Positions 14,585 through 60,256 are shown, counted from the stretch's first letter. The stretch is DNA of 64,000 nt from Clostridia bacterium (GCA_017411325.1 JAFQQJ010000013.1:15295-79294); one strand, 5' to 3'. Made by a program: numbers and translations. The notes: generated by a model not told the origin, from the sequence alone.

Positions 14585-14717
14585 TTGTAAGGCGGCTGTA
14601 AACTTATGTTTACGGCTGTCTTTTATTTTGCACTTGCAATTCTTTACAAAATCTGTAATAATAAATCCGGATGCCGGACAGAATAATACAGCCTTAATAA
14701 AAATAAGGAGGTTTATT

Positions 14718-15786: not shown

Positions 15787-15812
15787 TACCACATAATCGG
15801 CATTATGTGGTA
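15787..15812. repeat. right recombinase core site (IRR)
   Basis: TACCACATAAT-CGGC-ATTATGTGGTA. Confidence 0.9.
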
Positions 15813-15848
15813 GAAAATTATGAGTGGTTTTTTGAAAGGAAGGATTTT

Positions 15849-30127: not shown

Positions 30128-30861
30128 TTCATGGCAGAACAGAAGAGGACAAGCTGATGCTTGCAAAGGCATACGATGCCTATACCTTTTCTGAAAAGCG
30201 GAATATGCCTTATTTTACTGCTTTCTTATCTCCTGCAGACAGAGCACTTTCGTCAGTTGCATTTAAGGAGACGGAGGCTGAGTTTTACGGCGGGTTTCCG
30301 GATGCGGAAAGATGTGTGCTTGGCTTTAAGGCGGAAGCAAAGGAAGATTTTCCCATCTGCATAATAAAATCCGAAGGTGATTTTTCCGATGTTTCCCACA
30401 GGGACTTTTTAGGAAGTCTGATGGGGCTTGGAATAACCAGGGAAAATCTGGGAGATATAGTGAAGAAGGATGACTGCTGCTATATATTTGTTCTTCGCAA
30501 AATGGCGGACTATATCAAAGAAAACTTTATTCAGGTGAAAAAAAGTACTGTCAAAAACGAAATAATGGAATGCGGTGAGGTTACAGTAGTAAGGGAGTTT
30601 GAAACCGTTAAAAAGAGTGTGGCTTCCTTAAGGGCAGATGCGGTGATTGCAGCAGCCTTTAATCTTTCCCGCTCCGATGCGACAGAGGCAATCAGGCGGG
30701 GAATGGTAACGGTTAACTACCGCATTCTGGAATCAACGGATAAAAGACTTTCTGAAGGTGATACGCTTTCGCTTCGCGGAAAGGGAAAAACCGTTCTGGA
30801 AAAGCTTGGAGACTTAAGCAAAAAAGGAAGACTTTTTATAGAAATAAAAAAATATAAGTAG
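30097..30861 (+). CDS. ylmH: YlmH-like RNA-binding (S4 domain) protein
   Basis: C-terminal S4-like segment LRADAVIAAAFNLSRSDATEAIRRGMVTVNY. Conserved position between yggT and divIVA. Start uncertain (GTG 30097 or ATG 30157). Confidence 0.75.
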   Translation: MSGIFKQDVIIHGRTEEDKLMLAKAYDAYTFSEKRNMPYFTAFLSPADRALSSVAFKETEAEFYGGFPDAERCVLGFKAEAKEDFPICIIKSEGDFSDVSHRDFLGSLMGLGITRENLGDIVKKDDCCYIFVLRKMADYIKENFIQVKKSTVKNEIMECGEVTVVREFETVKKSVASLRADAVIAAAFNLSRSDATEAIRRGMVTVNYRILESTDKRLSEGDTLSLRGKGKTVLEKLGDLSKKGRLFIEIKKYK

Positions 30862-35048: not shown

Positions 35049-37796
35049 ATGAAAAGAGTATTGGCATTTTTTATCATGCTCAGCTTGCTTATGTCACTCT
35101 TTGCCATATGTGTTTCGGCAAATGAAACGGTTTTAACCGTAAGTGACATTGATGTGAAGTCCGAAACCGGTGTTGCTGTAACATCGGGCAAAGCAGGTAA
35201 ATGGGCAGAGGGAGGATACATCGGCTTTAAGGATGTGGATTTTACAGGCATTAAATCCGTAAGAATTTCCGTAAGCAACATCCTTATGTACGGGGAAAAC
35301 GGAGAAACCTTCCGCGTATATATTGACGATCCCTTAAAGGGTAAGTGCATCGGTTACATCGTAACAAACGATGAGACAAGTGAGCCCATCCTTTACGGAA
35401 CGAATATCGAGCCGATATCGGGTAAGCACGACTTATACATAAAGCATAACTATTCAAGGTCAGACCATATCTACCTTCACGATGTGAGATTGTCAACGGA
35501 AGAATGGGTTGATCCAAAGGCTGTTACCCCCGTTCCCGACTCCCGTATTATTGACGTTTATGCAGATACCTGGGTGGCGACCGATGCGGCAGGACACAAG
35601 GTGGCTGACTATGAAGAAGCGGGCGATGTGAAAGAGGGCAAGCACGAGGTTGTTATGTTCTATCATGACTGGCATATTCATGATACAAAGGCTTATATCG
35701 CAAGCGAGGTTATAGCAAAGCACCCGGAAGCGAAGGACGATTTCTATCACTCCGCATGGCCTTCAAACGGCCCTGCATTCTGGGGTGAATCTGTTTACGG
35801 CTTCTATACGGGTACCGATTACTGGCATTACAGAAAAGCTGCGGAGCTTATGGCTGCAAGCGGTGTTGATGCGGTATTTTTAGACTACACCAACGGAGAT
35901 GCCGCATATGTAAAGGCTCTTACCGTAATGCTTTGTGCATACCACGATGCGAGAGCCGACGGCGTTGATGTTCCGAAGGTTACCTGCTATATGCAGATGG
36001 GCTCAACTCCCGAAATGAGATGGAATCTCTTAGAAGCCATATATTTCAATCTTTGCCACAACGAATACTATAAGGATTTGTGGTATTATCTTGACGGAAA
36101 GCCTATGCTTGTCTGCTCAGAGCCAAACAGCTTCATTAAGGCGGTAAATCCCGAAGATACCGAGGAAGTGGCACTGGCAAAGGAGCTTACCGACTTTTTC
36201 ACCTTCCGTGAAACGGGAAGCAGAGAAACAGGACCCTACAACGAAAACGGTAAATACTGGCACTGGCTCGTAAACTATCCTCAGCACGAATGGGGAATTA
36301 CGGCGTCTGGCAGAGTTGAAATGGTAAACTTAGGTATGGCGATAAACCACTCCTATGTATATAACTATGCGGGCACCGGCGTATTTTCGGATAAATACAC
36401 CAAGGGCAAAAACTACACAGAGGCATTTGGCGAGGACTATCGCCCCGAGGCATTGCTTGAAGGCTACTTCCTTCGTGAGCAGGCATCAAAGGTGCTTTCT
36501 GTCGATCCCGAGATTGTGTTCGTTGACGGATGGAATGAAATGAACACCGCAAGAGGCAAGGATTACTACGGCTTCCCCAACGCGTTTATCGACCTTTTCG
36601 ACGATGAAAACAGCCGTGATTTTGAGCCTTATAAGGGCGCACTCAAGGATACCTATTATATGCTTCTTACTGACTTTGTCAGAAAATATAAGGGCGTAAG
36701 ACCTGCTCCCATAGCAAGTGCTCCTGTATCCGGCGATATGATGACAGCCGATGCGTGGGCAGGTGTTGAGCCCACATTCTACAACTATTTCGGCGACTAT
36801 GAGCGTGATGCCATTGGCTACAGAAACTACGAAACGAACGAGCACTACGTTTATAAAACAGAGGTTGTAAATTCAATTAAAGAATCCAAGGTTGCAAGAG
36901 ACGGCGAAAGCTTCTATTTCTATGTAAAGTGCGAAAAGGCTATTGATGATACAAAGATAGGCTTTATGAACATTTATATCAATGCAGACAGAAACTATGC
37001 TACAGGCTGGGAAGGCTATGACTATGCCGTAAACGTGTCAGGCAAGGGTAAGGTTTCTCTATTTAACGGAAAAGACTATACACTTTCAGACATAGGCGAT
37101 GCTGAAATAAAAATCCTCGAAGATACAGTTATCATAAAGGTTTCAAAAGCATTAATCGGTGAAACTGATGTAGCCGACTTTGAATTTAAAATTACCGACA
37201 ACATAGTATCGGGCGGCGATTTACTTCTTTTCTACACAGAAGGAAACTCCGCCCCCGTGGGAAGATTCAACTATCTATATACCGAAATTCCCGCCAAAGC
37301 TTTAACTAAGGAAGAAAGAGCGGCTCTTTCCGATACCACCGTACTTAAGGCGGGAAGCTCCAAAATGATAGTTGACGGTGCCAAGATGAATGTTTATGAA
37401 AAGGATACAAGAGTAAAAGCATTTTCGGAAAACGGCACATTGTATGTTCCTCTTATAGCTCTTGATGACATTATGGGATGGGGCGAAACAAAGGCGACCT
37501 ATGACTATAAAAAGAATGTAATTTACATAAAGACCCACGAGCTTACAAATAACGAGATAACAGATTATCAGTGGATTTACAGCTATCTCGGAACATATAC
37601 GGCATCAATTGACGGAGAGGATAAAGCGCTTACAAATCCCACCAAGGCGGTTTCCGGCGTGGTTTATGTTCCTCTTACAATTCTTTCTGAATGCTTCGGA
37701 TGGAGTGTAAATGACATCGGTGACGGCGCCTTTGCCATAAGTCAGAGAACGACAAACGTTGATGCGGCAAATGCCGTATTAAGCCATTTTAATTAA
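35049..37796 (+). CDS. secreted multidomain carbohydrate-active protein A1
   Basis: Three regions: a CBM6/35-like N-domain, an unassigned TIM-barrel-like core, and a copper-amine-oxidase-like C-domain. 915 aa with a signal peptide. The N-domain pattern GYIGFKDVDFTGIKSVRISV...GKHDLYI is typical of CBM6/35. The core has VVMFYHDWH..., VDGWNEMNTARG, FDDENSRDFEP. The C-terminus has LKAGSSKMIVDGAKM...GTLYVPL...VVYVPLTILSECFGWSV. Catalytic family not recognised. Confidence 0.65.
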   Translation: MKRVLAFFIMLSLLMSLFAICVSANETVLTVSDIDVKSETGVAVTSGKAGKWAEGGYIGFKDVDFTGIKSVRISVSNILMYGENGETFRVYIDDPLKGKCIGYIVTNDETSEPILYGTNIEPISGKHDLYIKHNYSRSDHIYLHDVRLSTEEWVDPKAVTPVPDSRIIDVYADTWVATDAAGHKVADYEEAGDVKEGKHEVVMFYHDWHIHDTKAYIASEVIAKHPEAKDDFYHSAWPSNGPAFWGESVYGFYTGTDYWHYRKAAELMAASGVDAVFLDYTNGDAAYVKALTVMLCAYHDARADGVDVPKVTCYMQMGSTPEMRWNLLEAIYFNLCHNEYYKDLWYYLDGKPMLVCSEPNSFIKAVNPEDTEEVALAKELTDFFTFRETGSRETGPYNENGKYWHWLVNYPQHEWGITASGRVEMVNLGMAINHSYVYNYAGTGVFSDKYTKGKNYTEAFGEDYRPEALLEGYFLREQASKVLSVDPEIVFVDGWNEMNTARGKDYYGFPNAFIDLFDDENSRDFEPYKGALKDTYYMLLTDFVRKYKGVRPAPIASAPVSGDMMTADAWAGVEPTFYNYFGDYERDAIGYRNYETNEHYVYKTEVVNSIKESKVARDGESFYFYVKCEKAIDDTKIGFMNIYINADRNYATGWEGYDYAVNVSGKGKVSLFNGKDYTLSDIGDAEIKILEDTVIIKVSKALIGETDVADFEFKITDNIVSGGDLLLFYTEGNSAPVGRFNYLYTEIPAKALTKEERAALSDTTVLKAGSSKMIVDGAKMNVYEKDTRVKAFSENGTLYVPLIALDDIMGWGETKATYDYKKNVIYIKTHELTNNEITDYQWIYSYLGTYTASIDGEDKALTNPTKAVSGVVYVPLTILSECFGWSVNDIGDGAFAISQRTTNVDAANAVLSHFN

Positions 37797-37805
37797 GGAG
37801 GGGTA

Positions 37806-40733
37806 ATGATGAAGAAAATATTAACACTTGTACTTGCCCTTTTAATGGCATTTTCTGTTACTTCCTTTGCAGAAGAGTTTATAAATAAAGAGGGGATGAC
37901 TGCTTCTGCATCAAGCGTATGGAGAGACCTTAATGCGGCCTCTAAGGCGGTTGACGGAAAGCTGGATGCCTCCTGGCACTCTCATCCCGATGACAAGAAT
38001 AAGTTCCCTGTTACGTTGGATGTCAATTTCGGAAGCGAAAAAGCGGTATCCGGAATCCGCTATTATGCGAGAGTAGATGCTGAAGGAAGCATCAACGGCG
38101 TATGGACAAATTTTGATGTTGAAATAAGCAATGACGGAGTAAACTTTGAAAAAGCAGTAACTGGCCTTTCCGTTAATGCAGTGAAGGAGCCTCAGGATGT
38201 TCCCTTCGGTAAAAGCGTAAGCGCAAAATATATGCGCTTTACCATAAACGAGGGAAGCAAGGGCTATGCAACCTGTATGGAGCTTGAATTTATGAAGGGC
38301 GACGAAGCAGGTGCGCAGACGGCAGCACCCGGAAACACATCAGGTTCAGTCAATAAAGAAGCGATTAAGGCTTCTGCATCAAGCGTATGGAGAGATATAA
38401 ACGCGGCAAAGCTTGCTGTTGACGGAAAGACGGATACCTCCTGGCACTCTCATCCCGATGATAAGGATAAGTTTCCCGTTAACTTTGACCTGGACTTCGG
38501 AAACGACGTGACCTTAAGCGGAATAGTTTATCATACGAGAGTGGATGCAGAAGGAAACATCAACGGCGTATGGTCAGATTTCGACGTTGAGATAAGTAAG
38601 GACGGAGTTAATTACGAAAAGGCGGTAACGGGCCTTTCGGCAAATGTACAAAAAGAGCCCCAGGAGATTTTGTTCGGCAAAAATATTACTGCAAGATATG
38701 TCCGCTTTGCCATAAATGAAGGAAGTAAAGGCTATGCAACCTGCATGGAGCTTGACTTTATTATGGGTGAAGGAGAGGGTGAAAAGCCTTCGGGAAATAT
38801 ACCTTCTGCGCCCGCAGCATCAGAATATGTCAGCAAAAAGGACTGGAAGGTTTATTGCTCCAGCACCTTCAAGGGTAAAAATGCAGAATATATGATTGAT
38901 AACAATATCACTACATTCTGGCATTCAAATTATTATACTGCGGACAACAAAACTATTGACGGTAAGGACGAGCCTCCTTATTACATAAGCTTTGTTCTTC
39001 CTTCGGAAACAGTAATCTCGGGCTTTTCCTACGTTCCGAGGCAGGATGCGATTGATACAGGAAAGGTTAAGGTGTATGAAATTTATGCCGCTTCGGGAAA
39101 AGAAGGCACTGCACTTAAAATAAACGAAGGCGAATTAAGTGTAGGAAAGGAAGAAATAAAGGTTGACTTCGGCTTTTCCGTAAAGGCGCAGAGTATAATC
39201 TTCGTAATTAAGGAAAGTGTATCATCCTTTGGTACCTGCGCGGAATTTAATCTTATTACGGGAAATACTGCATCAGCCAAAGCACCCGCTGATGTAAAAA
39301 CAGGAGATTCCACCCTTAAGGTTGGCTACGGCACAGCTTACGGTATGGAAGAGGTAAAAAAGGAAAGCGAATATTATGAGGATAAAAATCTCTGGAAGAT
39401 AGAAGCCTCCTCACAGAGACTTCCTCACTATCCTGCAACCAAGGCGATTGACGGAAATACAGCAACCTACTGGCATTCTGACTTCACCGATGACGGCGGA
39501 GCAAAGGTGGTAAGTATGGTTAAAGGCCCTCACACCCTTGATATAACCTTCCCCGATTTAAGAGCGGTTTCGGGCGTTACCTACACACCCAGAAAGGGAA
39601 ACAGCGCAGGTATCATAACGGGCTATGAAATTTATGCGGCGGAAAGCGATGATTCCGAATGGATAAAAATCGAAGAAGGAAGCTTCAAAAACGATTCTTC
39701 AGTAAAGGAAGTTCATTTTTCTGCAAACGTAAAAATGAAAAAGCTCCGATTCAGGTCCGTAACATCCGTAAGCGATTACGGCGTATGCGCCGAGCTTGAT
39801 GTAAGACCTGAAAATGTAAACCTTAAGACAATGGAAAGCATAAATGAGTTTGTTTCCTACAACAAGGAAAACAAGCTTATCAAAATTCCCGAAACGGCAA
39901 TTATAAGTGCCGATGCATCGAGCATATGGAACGAGAATAACGGCACCAACTTCCTTTTTGACGGTGCGCCCTCCCGTGCGTGGCACTCAGATCCCGGAGA
40001 TAAAGGAAAATTCCCCATAACGCTTTATCTGGAGCTTGACAACGTGTATGAAATTCCCGCAATGGACTATTATGCCCGCGTTGACGGTGAAGGAAACATC
40101 AACGGCGTATGGCTTTCCTACAGTATCTGGACAAGTGAGGACGGGGAGGAATATATCCCTGCGGCTGAAAACTTAAGCTTTGAAGTAACCGACAAGGTTC
40201 AGCGGGTTAACTTTGATGTGCCCTTAAAGGCAAAGTTTATTGAAATTGAGATAAACAACGGAAGCAAGGGCTATGCAACCTGCGGAGAGCTTGTTCTTTA
40301 CGAAAAGTCAGGAGCTATGGAAGATAGAAAGAGCGGTAACTATTATACTCTCAGGATTGGAAATAAAACCGTTACAAGTGTAAAAAACAATGAGGAGACA
40401 GCGAAGGAAATAGACGTTGCACCCTTCATTGATGACGGAAGAACAATGATTCCTTTAAGAGGATTATTAGAGGAAATGGGCGCCGGAATCACCTGGGACG
40501 GTACAAAGAAAAAAATAGGCATAACCACAGACAAGGTGAAAATTGAGCTTCAGATAATGAACGACCTTTGCTATGTTACCGATGCAAAATACGGCCGCGT
40601 TCGTTACACTCTGGATGTTCCGCCCATCATAAAGGATTCAAGAACCTTTATTCCCGTAAGATTTATAACGGAACAGCTTGGCTACAGTGTTACCTGGGAC
40701 GGAGCGACACAGACGGTAAAAATTTCAGAATAA
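37806..40733 (+). CDS. secreted protein B1: five F5/8-type-C (discoidin/CBM32-like) repeats + copper-amine-oxidase-like C-domain
   Basis: 975 aa. Recurrent unit ...ASASSVWRD.NAA..AVDGK.D.SWHSHPDDK.KFPV...SGI.Y..RVDAEG.INGVW..FDVEIS.DGVN.EKAV... The C-terminus DVAPFIDDGRTMIPLRGLLEEMG...FIPVRFITEQLGYSVTWDG. Confidence 0.8.
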   Translation: MMKKILTLVLALLMAFSVTSFAEEFINKEGMTASASSVWRDLNAASKAVDGKLDASWHSHPDDKNKFPVTLDVNFGSEKAVSGIRYYARVDAEGSINGVWTNFDVEISNDGVNFEKAVTGLSVNAVKEPQDVPFGKSVSAKYMRFTINEGSKGYATCMELEFMKGDEAGAQTAAPGNTSGSVNKEAIKASASSVWRDINAAKLAVDGKTDTSWHSHPDDKDKFPVNFDLDFGNDVTLSGIVYHTRVDAEGNINGVWSDFDVEISKDGVNYEKAVTGLSANVQKEPQEILFGKNITARYVRFAINEGSKGYATCMELDFIMGEGEGEKPSGNIPSAPAASEYVSKKDWKVYCSSTFKGKNAEYMIDNNITTFWHSNYYTADNKTIDGKDEPPYYISFVLPSETVISGFSYVPRQDAIDTGKVKVYEIYAASGKEGTALKINEGELSVGKEEIKVDFGFSVKAQSIIFVIKESVSSFGTCAEFNLITGNTASAKAPADVKTGDSTLKVGYGTAYGMEEVKKESEYYEDKNLWKIEASSQRLPHYPATKAIDGNTATYWHSDFTDDGGAKVVSMVKGPHTLDITFPDLRAVSGVTYTPRKGNSAGIITGYEIYAAESDDSEWIKIEEGSFKNDSSVKEVHFSANVKMKKLRFRSVTSVSDYGVCAELDVRPENVNLKTMESINEFVSYNKENKLIKIPETAIISADASSIWNENNGTNFLFDGAPSRAWHSDPGDKGKFPITLYLELDNVYEIPAMDYYARVDGEGNINGVWLSYSIWTSEDGEEYIPAAENLSFEVTDKVQRVNFDVPLKAKFIEIEINNGSKGYATCGELVLYEKSGAMEDRKSGNYYTLRIGNKTVTSVKNNEETAKEIDVAPFIDDGRTMIPLRGLLEEMGAGITWDGTKKKIGITTDKVKIELQIMNDLCYVTDAKYGRVRYTLDVPPIIKDSRTFIPVRFITEQLGYSVTWDGATQTVKISE

Positions 40734-41699: not shown

Positions 41700-44456
41700 A
41701 TGAAGAAAATCACGGCTCTTATTCTGGCACTGTTAATGATGCTTTGCTCAATCAATTTAAGCTTTGCCGAAACAGATGTAAAGCTTGATTTGAACACGGC
41801 AAAGCTAAAAGGTCTCACCTTAAGCGGAGGGGAGATAATAAGCATTGAAAGAAAGGATTATTTGTATTTTCCTTCTGTTGACCTTACGGGAATCAATTCC
41901 GTAACGGTAAGGGCGTATAATAAAATTTCAGGTAATGTAAACGGAGAAACACTCCTTATATTGCTTGACAGTCCAGAAAACGGAGAGCTTATCGGAAACA
42001 TTACCCTTTCAGAGGTTGGAGAGGATATTTCTGTGACTTCGGGAATTAAGAGTGTGACCGGCAAGCACGACCTTTATTTTTACTGCCTTTACGGAAGTCA
42101 GACACAAAACGAATGCAGTATAAAAGAGATAACTCTTTCAAAAAATGCATATACCCACGATAATAAGAGTAAAAAGGTTTCCGATTCAGCGGTTATTGAC
42201 AACTTTTCCGATACATGGGTAGCTGTTGACGATATGGGCAGAGCCGTTGCAACCTATGAAGAACTTGGCGGCATAAAAACCGACGGCCGGGAGGTTGGTC
42301 TGCTTTACTGGAACTGGTTCCACGATGCCAAAAACACAAAGCGCGCCAATGTAATAAGCGAAGTGATAGCTGAAAAACCGGAGGCAAAGGCAGTATTTAC
42401 CGATCCCGTATGGGATGTCCGCGGCAGATTTTACTGGGCAGAGCCCATCTTCGGCTTTTACAATTCCTATGATTACTGGGTATATAAAAAGCACGCAGAA
42501 ATGCTTTCAATCGCGGGGGTTGATGTAATATTCTTTGACTATTCCAACGGCGGAAGAGTGTTTGTTCCCACAATGAATGTGCTTGCAGAAGCATTCCGCG
42601 ATGCAAAAGCACACGGCATAAAGGTTCCGAAAATCAGCGCAATGATGACCTTAAGCGGCGATAAGTCCGATGCATTCCGTGGTCTTAGTGCAATATACTA
42701 TAACTGCTTTAAGTTAAACGACTATTCCGACATATGGTATATGAAAGATAATAAGCCCTTCCTTTATGCAAATGCGAACTACGAAAATGCAATAAAGGAT
42801 GTGGCGGAAGAAAACATAGTGGAAGCGAAGCTTATAAAGGAAATATCCGATTATTTCACCATAACACCCCACGGCTCAAGAGATGTGGATAATAATGACA
42901 ATTCCTGGATGTGGCTTGAAAACTATCCTCAGGTGCTCCGTGATGTTGATAAGGAAACGGGCAGAGTCGGCTATGTTGCGGTCGGCTGTGCAATAAACGA
43001 ATCCACAGTATTTGGCGGAAGCGTAACGGGCGTATTCTCCGATCCCTACAACAAGGGCAGAGGTTATTCCGAAGCCTTCGGAGAAGATTATTCCGAGAAC
43101 GGCAAACGTATGGCGTACTTCTTCCGTGAGCAGAGCGCCCTTGCCCTTAAGGCAGAGCCTGAATTTTTAATGATTGACGGATGGAACGAATGGACAGCAG
43201 AGCGTAATGCAACCTGGGGTACCTTTACCAACGCTTTCTGCGACTGCTTCGACGAAGAAAACAGCCGTGACTTTGAGCCCACCAAAGGAAGCTTAAAGGA
43301 CGATTATTACCTTCTTATGTGCGACCTTATAAGAAAGTATAAGGGTGTAAGACCTGCTCCCACGGCATCGGGTATGAAGACGATTGACATAGAAGGCGGC
43401 ATAAATGAGTGGGACGGCGTACTTCCTTACTTTGTAAATTCCTATCAGGATTATGAGCGTGACGCCGACGGCTACGGCAAGGCGAAAACCGACGAAACCT
43501 GGCATTATACCACAAAGGTTGTAAATTCCGTAAAGGGCGCAAAGGTTTCCTTTGACGAAGAAAAGCTTTACTTTATGGTTGAGTGCGAAAAGGAAATAGT
43601 AAAGGATAGCGAAAACTTCTTAACCCTCTACATAAATTCCGACCGTAACGCGGTAACAGGCTGGGAGGGCTATGACTACGCCGTGAATTTAGACGGTATC
43701 GGAAAAGTATCAAAGTTTGCCGACGGTGTATGGGAAAAAACTACCGTTGGCGATGCGGCATATTCCGTTGACGGAAGGTATTTGAAAATCGCCCTTGAAA
43801 GAAGCTTTATAGGGGAGACGGGTGTGGTTGACCTTGAATTTAAGTGGACAGATTCGGTTAAAGCAGACGGCGATATTATGATGTGGTATCAGGACGGCTC
43901 GGTTGCTCCCTACGGACGCTTTAACTATCTCTACACCGAAATTGCACAGACAACACTTTCCGCAAGCGAAAGAGCGACTCTTTCAGAAACCTCCGTACTT
44001 AAGGCGGGAAGCAGTAAAATGATTGCAAACGGTGCAAAGATGTACGTTTACGAGGACGATATAAGAGTTACGCCCTTTGAGGAAAACGGCACACTCTACA
44101 TACCCGAGCAGGCGTATAACGAGGTTATGGGCTACGGCTTTTCAAAGACGAGATATGTAAGTGCGGACAACAACTTCTTTACCTATCACTTTGAATTGAA
44201 TGACGAGCTTACCGAAATTATAAACTACACCTGGACATATTCAGCTCTTGACAGCCTGGATGCAAGGGTAAACGGAAGGGTTACAAAGCTTTCGGCTCCG
44301 GTTAAATATGTAAACGGAATATTCTATATCCCCGTATCATTAATAGCTGAATGCTACGGATATGAGGTTAAGGCGCTTGGTAACGGTGTTTACACGGTAA
44401 GCTTTGATAAGACTCCGACAGATACGGTTAATGCCGTAATAAATCATCTTAATTAA
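41700..44456 (+). CDS. secreted multidomain carbohydrate-active protein A2 (paralog of A1)
   Basis: 918 aa, collinear with A1. Shared blocks include GKHDLYF, DGWNEWTAERN, FDEENSRDFEP, RKYKGVRPAP, GRFNYLYTEI, LKAGSSKMIANGAKM. Confidence 0.65.
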   Translation: MKKITALILALLMMLCSINLSFAETDVKLDLNTAKLKGLTLSGGEIISIERKDYLYFPSVDLTGINSVTVRAYNKISGNVNGETLLILLDSPENGELIGNITLSEVGEDISVTSGIKSVTGKHDLYFYCLYGSQTQNECSIKEITLSKNAYTHDNKSKKVSDSAVIDNFSDTWVAVDDMGRAVATYEELGGIKTDGREVGLLYWNWFHDAKNTKRANVISEVIAEKPEAKAVFTDPVWDVRGRFYWAEPIFGFYNSYDYWVYKKHAEMLSIAGVDVIFFDYSNGGRVFVPTMNVLAEAFRDAKAHGIKVPKISAMMTLSGDKSDAFRGLSAIYYNCFKLNDYSDIWYMKDNKPFLYANANYENAIKDVAEENIVEAKLIKEISDYFTITPHGSRDVDNNDNSWMWLENYPQVLRDVDKETGRVGYVAVGCAINESTVFGGSVTGVFSDPYNKGRGYSEAFGEDYSENGKRMAYFFREQSALALKAEPEFLMIDGWNEWTAERNATWGTFTNAFCDCFDEENSRDFEPTKGSLKDDYYLLMCDLIRKYKGVRPAPTASGMKTIDIEGGINEWDGVLPYFVNSYQDYERDADGYGKAKTDETWHYTTKVVNSVKGAKVSFDEEKLYFMVECEKEIVKDSENFLTLYINSDRNAVTGWEGYDYAVNLDGIGKVSKFADGVWEKTTVGDAAYSVDGRYLKIALERSFIGETGVVDLEFKWTDSVKADGDIMMWYQDGSVAPYGRFNYLYTEIAQTTLSASERATLSETSVLKAGSSKMIANGAKMYVYEDDIRVTPFEENGTLYIPEQAYNEVMGYGFSKTRYVSADNNFFTYHFELNDELTEIINYTWTYSALDSLDARVNGRVTKLSAPVKYVNGIFYIPVSLIAECYGYEVKALGNGVYTVSFDKTPTDTVNAVINHLN

Positions 44457-44468
44457 GGAGGCACCGGT

Positions 44469-46913
44469 ATGAAAAAAATATTATCTTTAATTATCGCAAT
44501 ATTAACTCTTTTCTCCCTGTGCCTCAGCATATCGGCGGAAAACACCATTACGCCCGATGGCTCCTGGAAGATAAAGGTGTCAAGTCAGCTTGGCACATCG
44601 GGAAATAACCTTTTTGACGGAAATACGGGTACAAACTGGCACTCAGCATATACCGTTGAAAACGGAAATATCGCAACTTCCGACAGTGCACCTTTCATAA
44701 TCAGTGTTGAATTCGGAAAGGAAATGGAAGTGTCGGGCTTTATCTACACTCCCAGAACCAATGACAGAACCGGCGCAATAAAGACCTTTAACGTATATGC
44801 AACAACCGGCGACGGTTATAAAAAGATTTACGAGGGCGAGTTTTACTACGAAGACGGGCTTTCGGGCTTAGTTCCTCAGACTGCAAGCTGGGGCAACGTT
44901 AAAATGAACGGCATAAAAATTGAAATAACAGAAGGTATCGGCGGTTTTGGCGCAGGCTCTGAAATTACATTCATCGAAGGCTCAAAGGGCACAGCCATAA
45001 AGGATGGTGAAGCCTTTAAGGGAGAAGAAGAGGAGACAGAGGAAGCAGAGGATACATCCGCGCTAGGAACAAAGCTTCAAAAGACGGACGGTTGGATAAT
45101 CACCGCATCCTCACAGCAGAACGATACAGGCTATTCTGTTTTAAGTGCCTTTGACGGAAACGAAAAGACCATCTGGCACACTGCATATAAGGCAGAAGAC
45201 GGGGTTGTGGTAAGCCACGATGAATGCCCCCACATAATCACCGTAACCTTCCCCGAAAAGACAAAGGTATCGGGCTGGCGTTATGTCCCGAGAAGCGACA
45301 ATGCTTCGGGAACGGTGCTTGAATACAACATTTATGCATCAGCCGACGGCACATCTTTTGAGAAAATTTACCAAGGCAGCTTTTCTTACATCGCAGGGGA
45401 TGCCGCACTCTATAAACCCTCCGGTGCAACCTGGGGCGATAAGGAAGCAAAGGCGATAAAAATTGAGATAACAAAGTCATTAGGCGGCTTTGGCACAGCC
45501 AAGGAAATTGAATTTTATACCGGCGGGAATGCGGCAGCGGAAGAAAAAGAAGAAAGCAAGGTGCAGGATAACAAGGCAACAAATTCCAAAGGCTGGAAGA
45601 TATCAGTAAATTCCGAAATGTGGAGCTCGGGCGCAAAGCTTATTGACGGAGACAGAAAAACAAACTGGCATTCTTACTATAAGGCAGAAGGCTCTGCCAT
45701 AGTGGATCAGGATGTGCCGCCCTACGAAATTGAAGTGATTCTTCCCGCCGTTACGGAAATTTCAGGCGTTACCTTGGTTCCGAGAACGGAGCTTACGGGA
45801 TTGTTCCTTGAGGTTGACCTTTATGTTTCAGATTCGGATGAGGGAGAATATTTCCTCATCAAAGAAGACATGGCTTTCGAAAACAGAATATATGACAGAG
45901 AAATTCCCTTAACCGCAAATATCGGCGTAAAGAAAATTAAAATTGTCGCAACCTCAACAGTTGGTGGCTTTGGTACACTTTCTGAAATTGAGCTTATGGA
46001 AAAGGATTCTGCAAAGGAGTCTGTAAGCTTTTCAGAATATGCGGCAAACGAAGAAGCCAACAGAATGTACAAGGTTGACACCGCTGATGCAGAGGTGATT
46101 TACGAAGGCGAAAACTGGTTTTCCCACACTCCCGACCATGCGATAGACGGAGCATCCTCCACCTTCTGGCAGACGGAAGAGCTTCCCAAAGGCTTTGCGG
46201 CGCTGATTGATATCGACCTTCAGAAAACCTACAGAATAAAGGAAATCGACTATACACCAAGACAGTCTGAAGACCTTCACGGTCACTGGCTGGGCTTTGG
46301 AATTTACACAAGTGAAGACGGGGTAAACTGGACACACGTCAAGGATGTAAGCTTTGAAAAGGACCTTTCCGTTAAGAAAATTGTGTTTGACGAGGAAATA
46401 GAAGCAAGATATTTTGAGTTTGAAATTTATGAGTATTTCGCGTCCCGTGTTTCTGCGGCGGAAATCACCTTCCTTCAGACAAAGGAAGGAAAGGAAGCTT
46501 CCCTTGCCGCCAACACGAAAAAATACACCCTTAAGATAGGCTCAAAGGAAATTGCCTATGAAAAGGGAGCGGACAAGGGTTCAAAGGAAATTGATGTTGC
46601 CCCCTTTATCACCAACGGCTCCACAATGATTCCTTTAAGAGGATTAATTGAAGAAATGGGCGGAAAAATCACCTGGGACGGTGAAACGCAGACAATCGGT
46701 GTTGATAACGGAAAGTATGAAATCACACTTCAGATATGTAATCACCTTGTATATGTTAAAGACCCCGTATACGGAAACATCCGCTATACACTTCTTAACT
46801 ACCCGATTATTTCCGAAAGCCGCACCTTTATCCCGGTAAGATTCGTATCAGAACAGCTCGGATACAGCGTTTCCTGGGACGGAACGACAGGCACGGTTAC
46901 AATAAGCAAATAA
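44469..46913 (+). CDS. secreted protein B2: four F5/8-type-C-like repeats + copper-amine-oxidase-like C-domain (paralog of B1)
   Basis: 814 aa. Repeats ...DGN..T.WH(S/T)AY......P..I.V.F......SG..Y.PR.....G.....N.YA...G..... The C-terminus DVAPFITNGSTMIPLRGLIEEMG...FIPVRFVSEQLGYSVSWDG. Confidence 0.8.
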   Translation: MKKILSLIIAILTLFSLCLSISAENTITPDGSWKIKVSSQLGTSGNNLFDGNTGTNWHSAYTVENGNIATSDSAPFIISVEFGKEMEVSGFIYTPRTNDRTGAIKTFNVYATTGDGYKKIYEGEFYYEDGLSGLVPQTASWGNVKMNGIKIEITEGIGGFGAGSEITFIEGSKGTAIKDGEAFKGEEEETEEAEDTSALGTKLQKTDGWIITASSQQNDTGYSVLSAFDGNEKTIWHTAYKAEDGVVVSHDECPHIITVTFPEKTKVSGWRYVPRSDNASGTVLEYNIYASADGTSFEKIYQGSFSYIAGDAALYKPSGATWGDKEAKAIKIEITKSLGGFGTAKEIEFYTGGNAAAEEKEESKVQDNKATNSKGWKISVNSEMWSSGAKLIDGDRKTNWHSYYKAEGSAIVDQDVPPYEIEVILPAVTEISGVTLVPRTELTGLFLEVDLYVSDSDEGEYFLIKEDMAFENRIYDREIPLTANIGVKKIKIVATSTVGGFGTLSEIELMEKDSAKESVSFSEYAANEEANRMYKVDTADAEVIYEGENWFSHTPDHAIDGASSTFWQTEELPKGFAALIDIDLQKTYRIKEIDYTPRQSEDLHGHWLGFGIYTSEDGVNWTHVKDVSFEKDLSVKKIVFDEEIEARYFEFEIYEYFASRVSAAEITFLQTKEGKEASLAANTKKYTLKIGSKEIAYEKGADKGSKEIDVAPFITNGSTMIPLRGLIEEMGGKITWDGETQTIGVDNGKYEITLQICNHLVYVKDPVYGNIRYTLLNYPIISESRTFIPVRFVSEQLGYSVSWDGTTGTVTISK

Positions 46914-55434: not shown

Positions 55435-58011
55435 TTATATATCAATTGTGGATGTTGCACGACCATCTGATGCTTCGGAAATTATACGGCGCATGGCGTT
55501 TTCGGCGTATTCGATATCTTTTTTCAGCTCGTCCGCCGTAATTCTTACGGCACCGTGACCGAAAATAATTACCTGCTCTAAATTATCCGAGGTTGCAACT
55601 TTTACCCTGTAGTCTTTGGAAAGTTCCTTTGAGGTCTTTTCAATATAGGAGTCGGCAGTTTCCGCCTCCTTGGTATAAACGATTTTTATGCCGTTATAGT
55701 CCTCAATTTCGCGGTGCTTTCCCTTAACCTTATAGGCATCAAAAACCAGGATGATATTTATATCCTCCATGGCATTGTAGTTGCAGATTTTGTCTGCCAA
55801 AAGCTGTCTTGCCGCATCAAAGCTGTCGGAGGAGACCGCTTTTAATTCGCTCCAGGAATAAATCACATTATAGCCGTCAATCAAAAGATAGGTGGGAAGA
55901 TTCTTGTAGGGCTTCGCCTTTTGTGGCTTTTCTGATTTTGTATAATCATAAACCCGTTCTTCTTCGCGGCGATACTTGGGGCGCTTTATTTTACCGTAGG
56001 TACGCTCGAAAATTTCAAGTAATTCTGCATCGGAATAATCCTTTTTATCTCTTTTTGGTGCACTTAATGGCTCTAAAACCTCTTTTTTATCTGAAAGAAG
56101 AGGAAGGTGCATATGAGAAAATACCTCGTCCCACTTAACGGTAAATCCGCTTCCGCCGCTGCAGAAAACAGAGTCGGGGCTGTTTCTTAAATCGCTTTCG
56201 GGATCATAGTTTTTCTTTTCGATAACCTCAATGGGATTAAGGCATTCATCATAGCCGCCGTAGGAAAAGGATATGCTTCCGAGACCGTGGGTGTAGGCTG
56301 TCACCGTATCGGGATATTCCGATAAAACGGAAACGGGGCCTCTGCCTTTGATTACGGAGATGGAATCAAGCATTTCCGGCGGAGAAAAGGATGCGCCGAT
56401 TCTGTCAAGGTCTGTCATGGCTCTGCCCGTGGAGCTTGAGGGTACTTTAAGTACAAACTCATAGTAAGGCTCTAAAAGCACGCTTTCTGCCTGCATAAGC
56501 CCCTGTCTTACGGCACGGTAGGTTGCCTGGCGGAAATCACCGCCCTCTGTGTGCTTTAAGTGGGCTTTTCCGTTAACCAGTGTGATTTTCACATCGGTCA
56601 GCGGTGCACCTGTAAGTACGCCACGGTGAGTTTTTTCGGAAAGGTGAGTAAGGATTAACCTCTGCCAGTTTCGGGAAAGTATGTCTTCGCCCACCTTAGT
56701 TCCGAAAACAAGACCGCTTCCGCGTTTACCGGGCTCAATTAAAAGGTGAACCTCCGCATAGTGGCGAAGCGGCTCAAAATGGCCCACGCCCTCTACGGTA
56801 CTTTTAACGGTTTCCTTGTAGTAAATGGAGCAGCTTTCGAAATTCACATCAATGGAAAAACGTTCCGATAACTGTCTTTTCAATATTTCAAGCTGAATTT
56901 TACCCATTACGCTGACACTTATTTTTCTTGAGTCCTCGTTGAAGCTTACGGAAAGCTTGGTTTCCTCCGACTCCAGCTTTTTAAATGCGGATAAGGCATA
57001 GCTTATGTCGCATGACGGGGGAAGGGCGGCGGTATAGGTAAATACAGGCTCCGATAAAAGGGAGGAGGAATCCTCTTCAAATCCAAGTCCGCTTCCGGAG
57101 GAAAGAGATGTTATGCCGGTTGCGGCAACAATCTGTCCGGAAAAGGCTTCGGGGATTGCTTTATAGCCCGCTCCGCTATAGAGGCGAAGCTCGTTTATTT
57201 TTTCTGACGGGTTATCCTCGGAAATTACAGTTTTAACCTTTAAGGAACCGCCGGTTATCTTCATATGGGTAAGCCTTTGTCCTTTGTCATCCTCTGTAAT
57301 TTTATAAACCCTTGCACCAAAGACTTCGGGGTATATGGGCTCCTTTGTATAGGTTGAAATAGCCCCGGCAAGCTTGTCCACACCGTCATTTTTGAGGGCG
57401 GAACCGAAAAAGCAAGGGAAAAGCCTGCGTTCTTTTATGGCATCGGCCAGGGAGGAATCGGAAATTTTGCCTGACTTTATATATTCATCAAAGAGGCAGT
57501 CGGTGTTTGTTGCAACTTCCTCATAAAATTCGTCGGTAAATTCGGAAAAGTCCGCACAAAGGGGTGTTAAGCTTTCGCGTATATCGGAAAGAATGGCGTT
57601 CTTTCCTTCATTTTCAAGGTCAAGCTTGTTTATGAAAATGAATGTGGGTACAGAGTAGTGGGAAAGCAAATCCCAGAGGGTTTTGGTATGGCTTTGCACC
57701 TTTTCGGGGGCGCTTATGAGCAAAACGGCATAGTCAAGCACCGAGAGGGTGCGCTCCGCCTCGGCTGAAAAGTCAACGTGACCGGGAGTATCAAGCAAGG
57801 TTATTTCTGCATCAGAAAGCTTGAAATGAGCCTGATGGGAAAAGATAGTTATTCCGCGGTCCTTTTCCATATAGTTCGTATCAAGATGGGTATTTTTGTG
57901 GTCGACTCTTCCAAGGCTTCTTATTTCACCTGCGTTATATAAAAGCGCCTCGGACAAGGTGGTTTTACCGGAGTCAACGTGGGCAAGGATGCCCAGAGTG
58001 ATTTTTTTCAT
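55435..58011 (-). CDS. fusion protein: EF-G/Tet(M)-like translational GTPase (aa 1 to about 640) + linker + Rae1/YacP-type NYN ribonuclease domain (aa about 707-858)
   Basis: G1 AHVDSGKTT, G3 DTPGH, G4 NKLD. Tet(M)-like LSVLDYAVLLISAPEKVQSHTKTLW. EF-G domain IV/V-like LLEPYYEFVLKVP. C-terminus LLIDGYNVIYSW...ILVFDAYKVKG...YTKEAETADSYIE...VATSDNLEQVIIFGHGAVR aligns by eye with B. subtilis YacP/Rae1. One uninterrupted 858-aa ORF. Confidence 0.85.
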   Translation of the reverse strand: MKKITLGILAHVDSGKTTLSEALLYNAGEIRSLGRVDHKNTHLDTNYMEKDRGITIFSHQAHFKLSDAEITLLDTPGHVDFSAEAERTLSVLDYAVLLISAPEKVQSHTKTLWDLLSHYSVPTFIFINKLDLENEGKNAILSDIRESLTPLCADFSEFTDEFYEEVATNTDCLFDEYIKSGKISDSSLADAIKERRLFPCFFGSALKNDGVDKLAGAISTYTKEPIYPEVFGARVYKITEDDKGQRLTHMKITGGSLKVKTVISEDNPSEKINELRLYSGAGYKAIPEAFSGQIVAATGITSLSSGSGLGFEEDSSSLLSEPVFTYTAALPPSCDISYALSAFKKLESEETKLSVSFNEDSRKISVSVMGKIQLEILKRQLSERFSIDVNFESCSIYYKETVKSTVEGVGHFEPLRHYAEVHLLIEPGKRGSGLVFGTKVGEDILSRNWQRLILTHLSEKTHRGVLTGAPLTDVKITLVNGKAHLKHTEGGDFRQATYRAVRQGLMQAESVLLEPYYEFVLKVPSSSTGRAMTDLDRIGASFSPPEMLDSISVIKGRGPVSVLSEYPDTVTAYTHGLGSISFSYGGYDECLNPIEVIEKKNYDPESDLRNSPDSVFCSGGSGFTVKWDEVFSHMHLPLLSDKKEVLEPLSAPKRDKKDYSDAELLEIFERTYGKIKRPKYRREEERVYDYTKSEKPQKAKPYKNLPTYLLIDGYNVIYSWSELKAVSSDSFDAARQLLADKICNYNAMEDINIILVFDAYKVKGKHREIEDYNGIKIVYTKEAETADSYIEKTSKELSKDYRVKVATSDNLEQVIIFGHGAVRITADELKKDIEYAENAMRRIISEASDGRATSTIDI

Positions 58012-58021
58012 AGCTTATTCC

Positions 58022-58744
58022 TTATTTTAATCTTAGTGATATTTCGCCGGAATCAAGAATTTCTTCTTCGCCATTGGCTTTTTTTACCAAAAGTGCGCCT
58101 GAATCTAAAATTTTTACGGCTTTGCCTTCATATGTTTCACCGTTTTTTATGTAAGATATATCTTCGCCCGGCACCAGGCTGAATTTTCTGTAATCCTCCA
58201 TAAAGGAATATGAGCCTTCATCGAAATAGCTTTTAAGCCTTGAAGCAATTTCTAATGCAAGTAAGGCGGGGGAAATGTCCTTTTCAAGGCTTGATGCAAT
58301 ATTTTTTATATCGGAAGGAAAATCTGCAGTTGTTAAGTTTATGCCTATGCCGACTATTATGAAAGGATTTTCGCCCAAAACGGATTCTGTCAGTATACCG
58401 CAGATTTTTTTCCCGTCTTTATAAATATCGTTTACCCATTTTATTCTGCAAAGCTCTCCGGTGAGAGAATGGATTGATTCAACAACGGAAACCGCGGCGG
58501 CTGATGTCATATAAAGGAAGTCCTTTGAATCTTTGTCTATGGGAAAGCCGACGGTCATATAAAGCCCTGTATCTTTAGGAGAAAAGAAGGTTTTGCCCTG
58601 TCTTCCTCTTCCGGCGGTCTGTTCCTTTGCGATTATAATGAAAGGACTTTTTTCGCCGTCTTTAATTATCCTTTTGGCATCATTGTTGGTGGAGCCGGTA
58701 ATATCCAATGATATTAGCTTGAAATTGTTATTCAAATCAGACAT
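58022..58744 (-). CDS. birA: biotin--[acetyl-CoA-carboxylase] ligase (no N-terminal HTH)
   Basis: 240 aa. Motifs GRGRQGKTFFSP and KWVNDIY. Confidence 0.85.
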   Translation of the reverse strand: MSDLNNNFKLISLDITGSTNNDAKRIIKDGEKSPFIIIAKEQTAGRGRQGKTFFSPKDTGLYMTVGFPIDKDSKDFLYMTSAAAVSVVESIHSLTGELCRIKWVNDIYKDGKKICGILTESVLGENPFIIVGIGINLTTADFPSDIKNIASSLEKDISPALLALEIASRLKSYFDEGSYSFMEDYRKFSLVPGEDISYIKNGETYEGKAVKILDSGALLVKKANGEEEILDSGEISLRLK

Positions 58745-60188
58745 TTTGCTTCTCCCTTTTCTTTCGCAATAATGATATTAAAATGGAGACAATGGAATAG
58801 ATTAAAACAGGTATATCTCCCCACATAGTATATGGGGTTATTTCATCTGTCAGCAGTAATTCGCCTTTGATTGTACCTGAATCATTTAATGGGATGGAAG
58901 AGATGATATTTCCCTTTGTATCAATGAAGGCGGAGATGCCGGTGCAGGCACTTCTTGCAACATAACGGCCGTTTTCAACAGAACGGTAAACGCTGTGATA
59001 AAGATGAAGACGTGCGGCATTACCCTTTGAAAACCAGGAGTCGTTGGTGGATACGCATAAAAGACGGGCGCCTTCTTTTACCGCTTCCCTTGAATAGGAG
59101 GGAAACATAGAGTCAAAGCATATTACGGGGCCTAAGCTGTAATCGCTTAAAAGCTTTGGCACCTTTCCTTTTGAAAGTCCCGCTTCCCGCGCTTCGGATG
59201 AAAAAATGTCAAAAATCGGATAATACTCTCCGTAGGGTACGGGGTGTCTTTTGTGATAAATCTCGCCATCAACATAAGGCAGGAGATAAACGGAAGTGTA
59301 TCTTTTTCCGTCACTGTCAGAAAAAAGGGAACCCAAAAGAACTGTTACATTGTTTTCCTTTGCGGCATCAGACAATGTTTCAAGTGCGGTGTTTTTGTTA
59401 AGATGAAGAGGGATTGCGCTTTCTGCGAAAAGCACAATTTCAGCATCTGAAATTTCATTTATTGAATCCTCGACTATTATGTTCGGAGGTGTAAGCCACT
59501 TGTCATACCCCCCGTATCCGTTCTGCACCACCTTTACCGTGACAGCTTCTCCTTCTTCGGGTATGGTGTACAGATAAGCCGAAACAAATGTATTTGCCAT
59601 AAGAAGGATTAATGGGAAAAGCATCGGCCTGATGGATTTTCTCAAAAAGCACATTGAAAAGGAAGATGCAAAATATATTACAATAAAGGAAATGAACAAT
59701 GAACCGAAAAGTGAAGCGCTTTGTATAAAGTAAGGACAGGCAGCAAAGGGAATTGAAATCCTTCCGAAAGGATATCCTGTAAAAAAGTCGGGAAGGGCAA
59801 TTAAATATTCATATATCACCCAGAGCGAAGAAAAAAGGAGCGGGTGAAATCCGGAAAAAGTCTTTTTCTTGGCCATAACGAAGAGCTTTGCAAAAAGTGC
59901 GGTGAAGAGCCCTTCTGCGGCGGAAAGAAGCAGATATGCAAGGAAAGGAAAAAGCTTCTGATAAAACAGATTTGGTGTTATAAATGAAATGTCGAAGCTG
60001 GATAAATATACGGAATTAAACATATAAAAAAATGTGCCGAAAACGAAGCCCTTAAAGAAAGGCCGCTTTTCGTCATAAAGCGAAAAATAAAAAAGCCCCG
60101 GAGCAAATAAAAGCAACGGCCAGGCATTTTCGGTTATGAAAGCGAGACCTGAAAGCACTCCTGAAAGTATTGAAAAAATAATTGCCAT
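58737..60188 (-). CDS. lnt: apolipoprotein N-acyltransferase-like protein (polytopic N-domain + CN-hydrolase domain)
   Basis: About 7-8 TM, then a nitrilase-fold domain with candidate E-K-C triad (LFAESAIP, YHKRHPVPYGEY, PVICFDSMF). ATG 60188 behind AAGGAG preferred over GTG 60227. 8-nt overlap with birA. Confidence 0.7.
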   Translation of the reverse strand: MAIIFSILSGVLSGLAFITENAWPLLLFAPGLFYFSLYDEKRPFFKGFVFGTFFYMFNSVYLSSFDISFITPNLFYQKLFPFLAYLLLSAAEGLFTALFAKLFVMAKKKTFSGFHPLLFSSLWVIYEYLIALPDFFTGYPFGRISIPFAACPYFIQSASLFGSLFISFIVIYFASSFSMCFLRKSIRPMLFPLILLMANTFVSAYLYTIPEEGEAVTVKVVQNGYGGYDKWLTPPNIIVEDSINEISDAEIVLFAESAIPLHLNKNTALETLSDAAKENNVTVLLGSLFSDSDGKRYTSVYLLPYVDGEIYHKRHPVPYGEYYPIFDIFSSEAREAGLSKGKVPKLLSDYSLGPVICFDSMFPSYSREAVKEGARLLCVSTNDSWFSKGNAARLHLYHSVYRSVENGRYVARSACTGISAFIDTKGNIISSIPLNDSGTIKGELLLTDEITPYTMWGDIPVLIYSIVSILISLLRKKREKQNV

Positions 60189-60256
60189 AAAAAGCTCCTT
60201 TTCCTTAAATATAGTATATTTTAGCACAAAATAAGAAATATATCAATAAAAAAATC

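Follow-up and report, generated by a model that had tools for sequence, protein, structure and literature searches.

The endoribonuclease Rae1 (YacP) cuts messenger RNA (mRNA) ∼12 nt upstream of the A site on stalled ribosomes, and an earlier, docking-based model of cleavage within the A site was explicitly given up by its own authors (Deves et al., PMC12407103). On collided ribosomes, Rae1 makes substrates for transfer-messenger RNA (tmRNA), a pathway named CART (Tetreault et al., bioRxiv September 2026, PMC13622287). Its binding to the ribosome is transient; hence, there is no ribosome-bound structure of Rae1 (PMC13622287). Fusions of a translational GTPase with the nuclease domain of this family were reported from Clostridia as "Tet-NYN_YacP" and assigned to the Tet subfamily (Atkinson 2015, BMC Genomics, PMC4342817); the same architecture in Clostridia was reported again by Matelska et al. 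(2017, Nucleic Acids Research [NAR], PMC5499597). Both studies predate the discovery of Rae1 function; they noted only the architecture, offered processing of ribosomal RNA (rRNA) or tRNA, or a new resistance mechanism, as guesses (PMC4342817, PMC5499597), and did not probe whether the proteins are true Tet factors. The fusion is mentioned in neither PMC12407103 nor PMC13622287, and because the phylogenetic survey in the latter used hmmsearch with no length filter, fusions would count as Rae1 there. Here, a gene for such a GTPase-NYN fusion was analyzed, which is located on a 64,000-nt stretch of DNA from a Clostridia bacterium (GCA_017411325.1 JAFQQJ010000013.1:15295-79294), in the following referred to as the window. 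An earlier note on this DNA had pointed out the fusion, which, given the two publications, is not unreported. The note's statement that no functional characterization is known agrees with our literature search, in which no functional study of the fusion was found, but solely the two mentions of its architecture. Thus, the architecture is already known; what is new is that the protein fails the criteria for Tet proteins, that an unfused version of the GTPase exists in Lactobacillaceae, and that rlmB lacks an adjoining rae1 in Monoglobus, Vescimonas, and Subdoligranulum.

The gene and the parts of its product (positions in the window; aa, amino acids; ORF, open reading frame; pLDDT, predicted local distance difference test) are as follows.

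55435..58011, minus strand: GTPase-NYN fusion gene, an uninterrupted ORF of 858 aa, the stop codon lying within the coordinates (ORF list and Pfam)
57346..58002, minus strand: G domain, aa 4-222 (GTP_EFTU, PF00009, E 3e-46)
57100..57315, minus strand: domain II, aa 233-304 (weak match to EF-G_D2, PF22042; beta-barrel in the AlphaFold model, pLDDT ∼80-88)
56836..57054, minus strand: domain III, aa 320-392 (EFG_III, PF14492, E 1e-7, exceeding the gathering score)
56488..56826, minus strand: domain IV, aa 396-508 (EFG_IV, PF03764, E 2e-18), with the family-specific tip loops EGVGHFEPLRHYAEVH (aa 407-422) and GKAHLKHTEGGDFRQATYRA (aa 481-500)
56242..56481, minus strand: domain V, aa 511-590 (EFG_C, PF00679, E 8e-12)
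56092..56241, minus strand: mini-domain after domain V, aa 591-640 (helix, beta-hairpin, helix; family-specific)
55894..56091, minus strand: flexible basic tether, aa 641-706, with the conserved helix ELLEIFERTYGKI at aa 663-675
55450..55893, minus strand: Rae1/YacP-type NYN domain, aa 707-854 (NYN_YacP, PF05991; PDB match; Foldseek)

The N-terminal part has the features of an EF2-family translational GTPase, i.e., all five G motifs including the catalytic histidine, and domains II to V in the order and with the fold of EF-G. The motifs are AHVDSGKTT (G1, aa 10-18), RGITI (G2), DTPGH (G3, aa 74-78, the catalytic histidine being His78), NKLD (G4, aa 128-131), and SAL (G5); domain V starts with LLEPYYEF (aa 512-519). 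The Pfam matches of domains III, IV, and V pass the gathering score, and domain II is only weakly detected. The tip loops of domain IV, with the consensus EGVGH(F/Y)EPLRHY(A/S)EVH and G(K/R)AHxKHTEGGDFRQATYRA, are nearly invariant in 150 representatives of the family. Domain V is followed by a mini-domain with the motif DSVFCxxGxGFxVxWxxVxxxMHLP, in which C590, C617, and W627 are invariant (alignment of 21 sequences and the 150 representatives). In the full-length AlphaFold model (pLDDT 75.7), which consists of the five EF-G domains, this extra element, a disordered stretch with a short helix, and the NYN domain, the mini-domain is structured (aa 593-634, pLDDT ∼80). Confident modeling of this element required the full-length protein, which makes packing on domain V or IV probable. 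The predicted template modeling score (pTM) of the model is 0.52, so the placement of NYN relative to the GTPase is not meaningful. When PDB sequences were searched by phmmer with the consensus mini-domain, no match was obtained. A homology of the mini-domain to the C-terminal helix of TetM and TetO was considered and rejected, as the alignment with the family profile stops at domain V and the phmmer search of the PDB returned no Tet protein; the likeness by eye of "IDKVRYMF" and "WDEVxxYMH" was not supported by the searches.

The C-terminal part is a Rae1/YacP nuclease by profile, by catalytic acids, and by fold, but is not located beside rlmB (yacO) and sigH. NYN_YacP (PF05991) matches aa 709-848 with 159 bits (E 1.4e-46; gathering score 24.6; profile positions 1-142 of 166), and the sequence of B. 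subtilis Rae1/YacP (PDB 5MQ8/5MQ9) is 41% identical over 135 aligned positions (E 2.4e-27). The NYN domain is modeled with a pLDDT of >90, and Foldseek aligned the C-terminal model with 5MQ9_A at E 1.2e-12 and a target-normalized TM-score of 0.77 (0.72-0.77 across 5MQ8/5MQ9). All four catalytic aspartates are aligned: D712 corresponds to D7 of the B. subtilis protein, D758 to D53, D787 to D81, and D809 to D104. The D7N/D81N variant of B. subtilis Rae1 is a published catalytic mutant that is inactive in vivo (PMC10351889). No NCBIfam model for Rae1 exists, and the C-terminal 268 aa match no NCBIfam family. The GTPase is connected to NYN by 66 aa containing 19 Lys/Arg and 14 Asp/Glu, with pLDDT <50 on either side of the short helix. 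In the family, the median tether length is 86 aa (interquartile range 72-105; measured from anchor points slightly different from those of the 66-aa figure), and Lys/Arg make up 26% of the segment after the helix motif. The helix itself, in the middle of the tether, has the consensus ELLxIFERTYGKI and is confined to fused forms. A separate Rae1 made from an internal start was ruled out, since neither Met nor an alternative start was found in the translation near the NYN boundary. The ATG of the fusion gene is preceded by a plausible ribosome-binding site, AAGGA, 8 nt 5′ of it. Thus, the earlier note correctly described one ORF of 858 aa for a five-domain GTPase, a linker, and a YacP/Rae1 domain, and the motifs it had listed (AHVDSGKTT, DTPGH, NKLD, and the start of domain V) are all present. 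The points on which it had let this proposal depend came out in its favor: neither a stop nor a frameshift interrupts the ORF, NYN_YacP is confirmed at the C-terminus, and orthologues keep the acidic residues.

Both halves are present in all of 120 listed homologues (835-879 aa, 55-94% identity to the 858-aa protein), and those with a source name are from Clostridia, Oscillospiraceae/Ruminococcaceae, or Firmicutes metagenome-assembled genomes. As 120/120 are single full-length fusions, a frameshift or an assembly artifact was excluded. When a single genome of each GTDB species was scanned with two peptide patterns specific to the family, the fusion was found in at least 600 species, all 600 stretches being confirmed relatives. 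Of these loci, 80 were kept, with flanks of up to 10 kb. They derive from Oscillospiraceae, Ruminococcus, Faecalibacterium, Flavonifractor, Intestinimonas, many Lachnospiraceae (Blautia, Dorea, Lachnospira, Marvinbryantia, and others), Herbinix, and Clostridium punense. Every locus, including the 64-kb window, has one NYN match, which is always the fused one; no second, stand-alone NYN gene was found near the fusion in the 1.37 Mb of window and loci. When cluster representatives at 50% identity were searched with HMMER, 150 matched with 638-872 bits, nearly all of them long (most 830-1000 aa), so that the family comprises more than 150 such clusters. In an alignment of 151 rows (the 858-aa query and 150 of these representatives), K16, T55, D74 to G77, K129, and D131 are conserved in 151/151 rows, H78 in 150/151, and the four NYN aspartates in 145-148/151. 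Six rows lack at least one of these aspartates, four of them short or truncated (616-803 aa) and two of full length (873 and 914 aa). Judged by this conservation, the active sites of both the GTPase and the nuclease are intact and under strong purifying selection. The published members (Atkinson Additional file 8, PMC4342817) are from R. albus 7, [Eubacterium] eligens ATCC 27750, E. rectale, Butyrivibrio proteoclasticus B316, C. cellulolyticum, C. lentocellum DSM 5427, L. phytofermentans, C. thermocellum, and D. hafniense. They share HFEPLRHYAEVH, KHT(E/Q/D)GGDFR, SVFC, and LLVDGYN with the window protein, which belongs to this Tet-like GTPase-NYN_YacP family (Atkinson 2015; Matelska 2017) and shows no structural difference from the published Clostridia proteins. 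By its distribution and its genomic surroundings, the fusion gene is chromosomal and vertically inherited in Clostridia, and is a single-copy, core-like gene that behaves as a housekeeping gene. Entries filed under phages and plasmids also contain the fusion or genes of the chromosomal core, e.g., rplK, rlmB, and rpoB (INPHARED MT835563.1 and MT835514.1, "Bacteriophage sp."; PLSDB NZ_OY725736.1, NZ_CP143948.1, and many others). Among the "plasmids" are sequences of 250 kb to 5 Mb, and the phage and plasmid entries look like mis-filed chromosome fragments or whole chromosomes.

Public databases name members of the family [quoted passage not shown] "translation factor GTPase family protein," or "GTP-binding protein"; one partial record is named "translation elongation factor G." The best NCBIfam model is indeed tet_protect (NF012153), but its 401 bits fall short of the curated cut-off (775). 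Far under the respective cut-offs, too, are the scores with the specific Tet models (NF033148, 269 versus 1100; NF012155, 228 versus 1420), with the EF-G equivalog TIGR00484 (248 versus 659), and with the remaining EF-G models. TetM and TetO are the best sequence matches in the PDB (E 1e-69); the family profile hardly separates TetO (358 bits) from EF-G (334 bits), and when the whole AlphaFold model was compared by fold, EF-G structures came first (E 4.5e-48) and TetM had rank 44. In the phmmer alignment, the TetM loop GLYYSPVSTPADFR is opposite GKAHLKHTEGGDFR of the query, i.e., YSPVSTP in the YSPVSTPADFR segment of domain IV is replaced by AHLKHTEGG, which is nearly invariant in the family. 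Residues Y506-Y507-S508-P509 in loop III of TetM domain IV are reported to contact and displace tetracycline (Donhofer 2012; Arenz 2015). By the criteria applied to its sequence, the fusion protein is not a tetracycline-resistance protein. The phrase "close Tet(M)-like" in the earlier note was therefore an overstatement, given the score on the Tet model and the missing loop signature.

An unfused counterpart of the GTPase was encountered when the C-terminal 268 aa were compared with PLSDB by tblastn: 33 megaplasmids of Ligilactobacillus salivarius matched, with the mini-domain only. The corresponding protein of L. salivarius pMP118, LSL_RS10690 (644 aa; 3228-5162 of the pMP118 locus, its divergent neighbor being an rpsN (S14) paralogue), aligns with aa 1-635 of the query at 47% identity, has an identical first domain IV loop (HFEPLRHY) and the SVFC mini-domain, and ends right after the latter. 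It, too, is below the cut-off of tet_protect (374 versus 775 bits). Among its homologues, 117 full-length matches of 640-665 aa were examined, all of which have the HFEPLRHY loop and the SVFC motif; the tether helix and PF05991 (precomputed domains) occur in none of the 117, and the pattern [LIV]DGYN matched a single time. Such unfused genes are chromosomal in Companilactobacillus, Levilactobacillus, Paucilactobacillus, Lactiplantibacillus, Limosilactobacillus, and Pediococcus, and are variously annotated as "elongation factor G," TetM, "translation factor GTPase family," or "GTP-binding protein"; our literature search found nothing functional on them, and their neighbors in Lactobacillaceae were uninformative for function. 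The Lactobacillaceae proteins are orthologous to aa 1-635 of the query and share its first domain IV loop and its mini-domain; they differ in lacking tether and NYN, and in the second loop, which reads G[KR]AS[NI]VH[ST]VGGDFR rather than the G[KR]AHxKHTEGGDFR of the fusion. The same Lactobacillaceae genera also contain a stand-alone NYN_YacP protein (Rae1) of 175 aa, the match extending to the species name for Levilactobacillus zymae. With GTPase and Rae1 encoded separately in Lactobacillaceae but jointly, by a single gene, in Clostridia, the comparison of these genomes yields a Rosetta-stone pattern, which points to a functional linkage of the two. The separate GTPase of Lactobacillaceae is thus an unexpected candidate partner of Rae1.

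The earlier note had also raised the question of whether this genome holds a stand-alone rae1. In other genomes, the region of rlmB was inspected with the help of chromosome pieces mis-filed as plasmids in PLSDB. In other Firmicutes and Collinsella, a stand-alone NYN gene of ∼170 aa is located directly beside rlmB in 22/22 records from 11 species (C. difficile with 12 records, Acetoanaerobium, three Bacillus, three Listeria, Paenibacillus, S. aureus, Aerococcus, Latilactobacillus, and Collinsella); the canonical rlmB/sigH arrangement of rae1 is annotated in C. difficile and L. curvatus. Beside the rlmB of Monoglobus pectinilyticus, Vescimonas fastidiosa, and Subdoligranulum variabile, it was found in 0/3 cases, nor was NYN present anywhere in those PLSDB records; within PLSDB, the fusion is the only NYN match of Monoglobus. 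As rlmB has no adjoining NYN gene in these three genomes (partial records), the arrangement suggests that the fusion replaced stand-alone Rae1 in the Oscillospirales/Monoglobales lineages sampled. The rpmG-secE-nusG-rplK cluster of A. rectalis and Monoglobus has lost the upstream synteny and is uninformative alone, and the rplK region is absent from all sequence of the window and the 80 loci. In the pMP35_01 region of V. fastidiosa (6731-8887), a hypothetical protein of 718 aa without NYN similarity is encoded directly 3′ of rlmB and thereby occupies the position held by Rae1 in other Firmicutes.

EF2-family GTPases in the GTP form bind the factor site of the ribosome, and hydrolysis proceeds via the conserved histidine. 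We favor, with moderate confidence, the view that the fusion is a GTPase-docked form of Rae1 that cuts mRNA on stalled or collided ribosomes. In this mechanism, the five-domain EF-G-type module in its GTP form would bind the ribosomal factor-binding site, and would probably select ribosomes that remain in a factor-accessible state for an abnormally long time, i.e., those that are stalled or collided. The NYN domain on its flexible basic tether would then cut nearby mRNA, the likeliest place being the mRNA entry of the bound ribosome, the exit of the one ahead, or the segment that joins them. The cut mRNA would give rise to non-stop complexes, to be rescued by tmRNA/SmpB, and GTP hydrolysis involving His78 would release the factor. 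By a rough estimate, a disordered chain with approximately the length of the tether should span several tens of angstroms, a reach that should suffice to bridge the factor site, on the decoding-centre side, and the mRNA entry channel of the same ribosome. Since Rae1 binds the ribosome only transiently (PMC13622287), a built-in docking module would be a sensible evolutionary solution. The general idea of the earlier note, a GTPase-guided mRNA nuclease for the surveillance of stalled ribosomes, is retained as the best explanation. Cleavage in the A site, which was part of it, is not (PMC12407103), and because this premise is outdated, delivery into the A site by domain IV is not the obvious geometry.

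Several points weigh against this mechanism. Ribosome binding, mRNA as the substrate, the trigger by stalling or collision, and the link to trans-translation are all inferred. The exit side of the same ribosome is harder to reach, as the factor-binding site and the mRNA exit are far apart; the geometry is therefore easy only where a neighboring, collided ribosome is concerned or where the cut falls on the entry side. B. subtilis is not known to have an orthologue of the GTPase, and its Rae1 works nevertheless; if so, the GTPase is no general requirement for Rae1 action. The tip loops of domain IV are unlike those of EF-G and TetM, and the ribosomal state that is recognized can therefore not be read from homology. 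Moreover, carriers of the fusion within Clostridium, Acetivibrio, and Desulfitobacterium may hold a stand-alone rae1 as well.

Among the other explanations, the nuclease might instead cut rRNA, the GTPase docking on immature, damaged, or idle ribosomes for a last step of maturation or proofreading, or for inactivation and turnover. An analogue of such a mechanism is the PIN nuclease Nob1, whose cutting of pre-18S rRNA is stimulated by eIF5B. The location of stand-alone yacP in an rRNA-processing operon (mini-RNase III, rlmB), on which the 2015 and 2017 suggestions were based, a factor-site GTPase that would bring the tethered nuclease near rRNA elements, and the basic nature of the tether all fit. 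Yet the experiments on Rae1 all show translation-dependent cleavage of mRNA, the identity of the fused NYN to B. subtilis Rae1 is consistent with a kept specificity, and the fusion gene is unlinked to rRNA-processing genes at every locus examined; we thus regard cleavage of rRNA as unlikely. That the protein, as Atkinson 2015 suggested, is a Tet(M)/Tet(O)-type factor for ribosomal protection against tetracycline, which acquired an RNase domain and functions in resistance, would agree with the best NCBIfam and PDB matches, with the subfamily assigned by Atkinson 2015, and with the names given by NCBI. Opposed to this are the scores, far under the cut-off of each specific Tet model and about half of that of tet_protect, the replacement of the tetracycline-dislodging loop by one of the family's own, and the relationship to EF-G, which is nearly equal by family profile and above TetM by fold. 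Vertical inheritance, synteny at the level of lineages, and graded divergence also differ from mobile tet genes, which are near-identical across taxa, and a nuclease active site, unneeded for resistance by drug displacement, is kept. A role in resistance therefore appears very improbable, and the public Tet(M)/(W)/(O)/(S) resistance label is very likely wrong for the fusion family.

An anti-phage or stress "suicide" effector, the GTPase of which senses abnormal translation (e.g., of phage mRNA) and the nuclease of which stops translation globally, was also considered. NYN/PIN nucleases are known from defense systems, such as the CRISPR-associated NYN ribonuclease, and action of Rae1 against phage mRNA has been speculated upon (PMC13622287). 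Against such a role, which we judge hardly credible, speak the single-copy, core-like nature of the gene in at least 600 species, its housekeeping neighbors, among which no defense-island context was seen, although no search aimed at defense systems (PADLOC) was made, and the fact that changes of neighbors are confined to deep divergence. Within the favored mechanism of GTPase-docked mRNA cleavage, a more specific version would have the EF-G-like module act as a sensor of failed translocation, at the factor site of the trailing, immobile ribosome in a collision, from where the cut would fall at the position mapped for cleavage by Rae1; we consider this version possible but doubtful. If it were true, the Rae1 of Lactobacillaceae would work with the unfused GTPase, and Rae1 would generally act from the side of the factor site and entry channel. 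The natural fusion would then be a reagent enabling the first structure of ribosome-bound Rae1, and an origin of the mobile Tet(M)/(O) resistance proteins from this lineage of housekeeping rescue GTPases would be conceivable.

Compared with Rae1 of B. subtilis, the C-terminal 150 aa have the same fold and belong to the same family (PF05991), with the four catalytic aspartates in common; the fused NYN probably carries out the same chemistry and the same job, i.e., cutting of mRNA on stalled or collided ribosomes. They differ in that Rae1 is a single-domain protein of 170 aa encoded beside rlmB and sigH, whereas the window protein has the domain as the C-terminal part of an 858-aa GTPase, with its gene at another location. 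The chain of Rae1 runs ∼25-30 residues past the aligned region, the fusion ends ∼10 aa past it, and targeting to the ribosome is presumably by the GTPase in the fusion, as opposed to the transient binding of Rae1 itself. With Tet(M)/Tet(O), the nearest solved relatives by sequence, the fusion has the five-domain EF2-family architecture and the GDFR/ADFR segment of domain IV in common. Unlike these mobile proteins with their drug-displacing loop, it is chromosomal, lacks the respective residues, and carries a nuclease, and its C-terminal extension has no detectable match to the TetM tail. A translational GTPase is coupled to an A-site rescue factor in Hbs1-Dom34. SmrB of E. coli and Cue2/NONU-1 of eukaryotes are nucleases recruited to stalled or collided ribosomes, where their upstream cleavage feeds rescue (PMC13622287). 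The analogy to these systems is mechanistic only; the folds are unrelated (SMR and not NYN), and none is a covalent fusion of GTPase and nuclease.

Rae1 was newly shown to start collision rescue in Gram-positive bacteria, and how it recognizes the ribosome is the current question (PMC13622287). A widespread natural fusion of Rae1 with a GTPase provides a hypothesis for where Rae1 works and a stable complex to image. The family is also relevant to the gut, since it occurs in the dominant human gut genera Faecalibacterium, Ruminococcus, Blautia, Dorea, and Agathobacter. The Tet label on the fusions and on their unfused relatives, at approximately half the curated cut-off, likely leads to false resistance calls in gut metagenomes and can inflate the number of resistance genes counted in microbiome surveys.

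In the window, the fusion gene follows two co-oriented genes, as listed below.

58022..60227, minus strand: upstream co-oriented genes lnt and birA-like (Pfam)
58737-60227, minus strand: lnt, overlapping the birA-like gene
58022-58744, minus strand: gene for a BirA-like ligase (Pfam)

The order at the locus is Lnt, BirA-like ligase, fusion, CitMHS permease (Pfam), on the minus strand, just as the earlier note had described it. The stop codon of the birA-like gene is 10 nt 5′ of the ATG of the fusion gene, and a promoter-like site (60246..60218) precedes the lnt-birA-fusion string, the three genes of which are probably on one transcript, in this lineage only. Relatives with 87% and 66% identity keep the neighbors (SpoVT-like, AI-2E transporter, GatD, MurT, Lnt, BirA-like, fusion, CitMHS), and at ∼50% identity the neighbors are wholly different. 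After clustering of the ORFs from the 80 GTDB loci, no neighbor recurred at any position, and the gene neighborhood was therefore dropped as a clue to function; the lnt-birA string is lineage-specific synteny and no conserved functional context. The GC content of the fusion gene is unremarkable.

The remaining window is ordinary core chromosome, with arg genes, miaB-mutS-mutL-miaA, sepF-ylmH-divIVA, and murT/gatD. A YlmH-type protein (PF17774) is encoded at 30097-30861 (plus strand) in a ylmE-sepF-ylmH-divIVA-lspA-rluD cluster. As YlmH is cited as an accessory factor of ribosome-associated quality control (RQC) in B. subtilis (PMC13622287), the organism has further parts for ribosome rescue. 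Three other regions of the plus strand stand out. In an ORF of 518 aa (7051-8607), a SIR2 domain (aa 19-192) is followed by one for aldose 1-epimerase (aa 238-511), which is an unusual pairing. Directly 3′ of a gene for a tyrosine recombinase (14628-15548), an ORF of 1235 aa (15807-19514) is located that has no Pfam match. Finally, large surface-type proteins (814-975 aa) with Cu_amine_oxidN1 domains are encoded as two tandem pairs at 35049-40733 and 41700-46913; one member of each pair additionally contains F5/8 type C domains, and a gene for an AraC/PocR regulator lies between the two pairs on the opposite strand.

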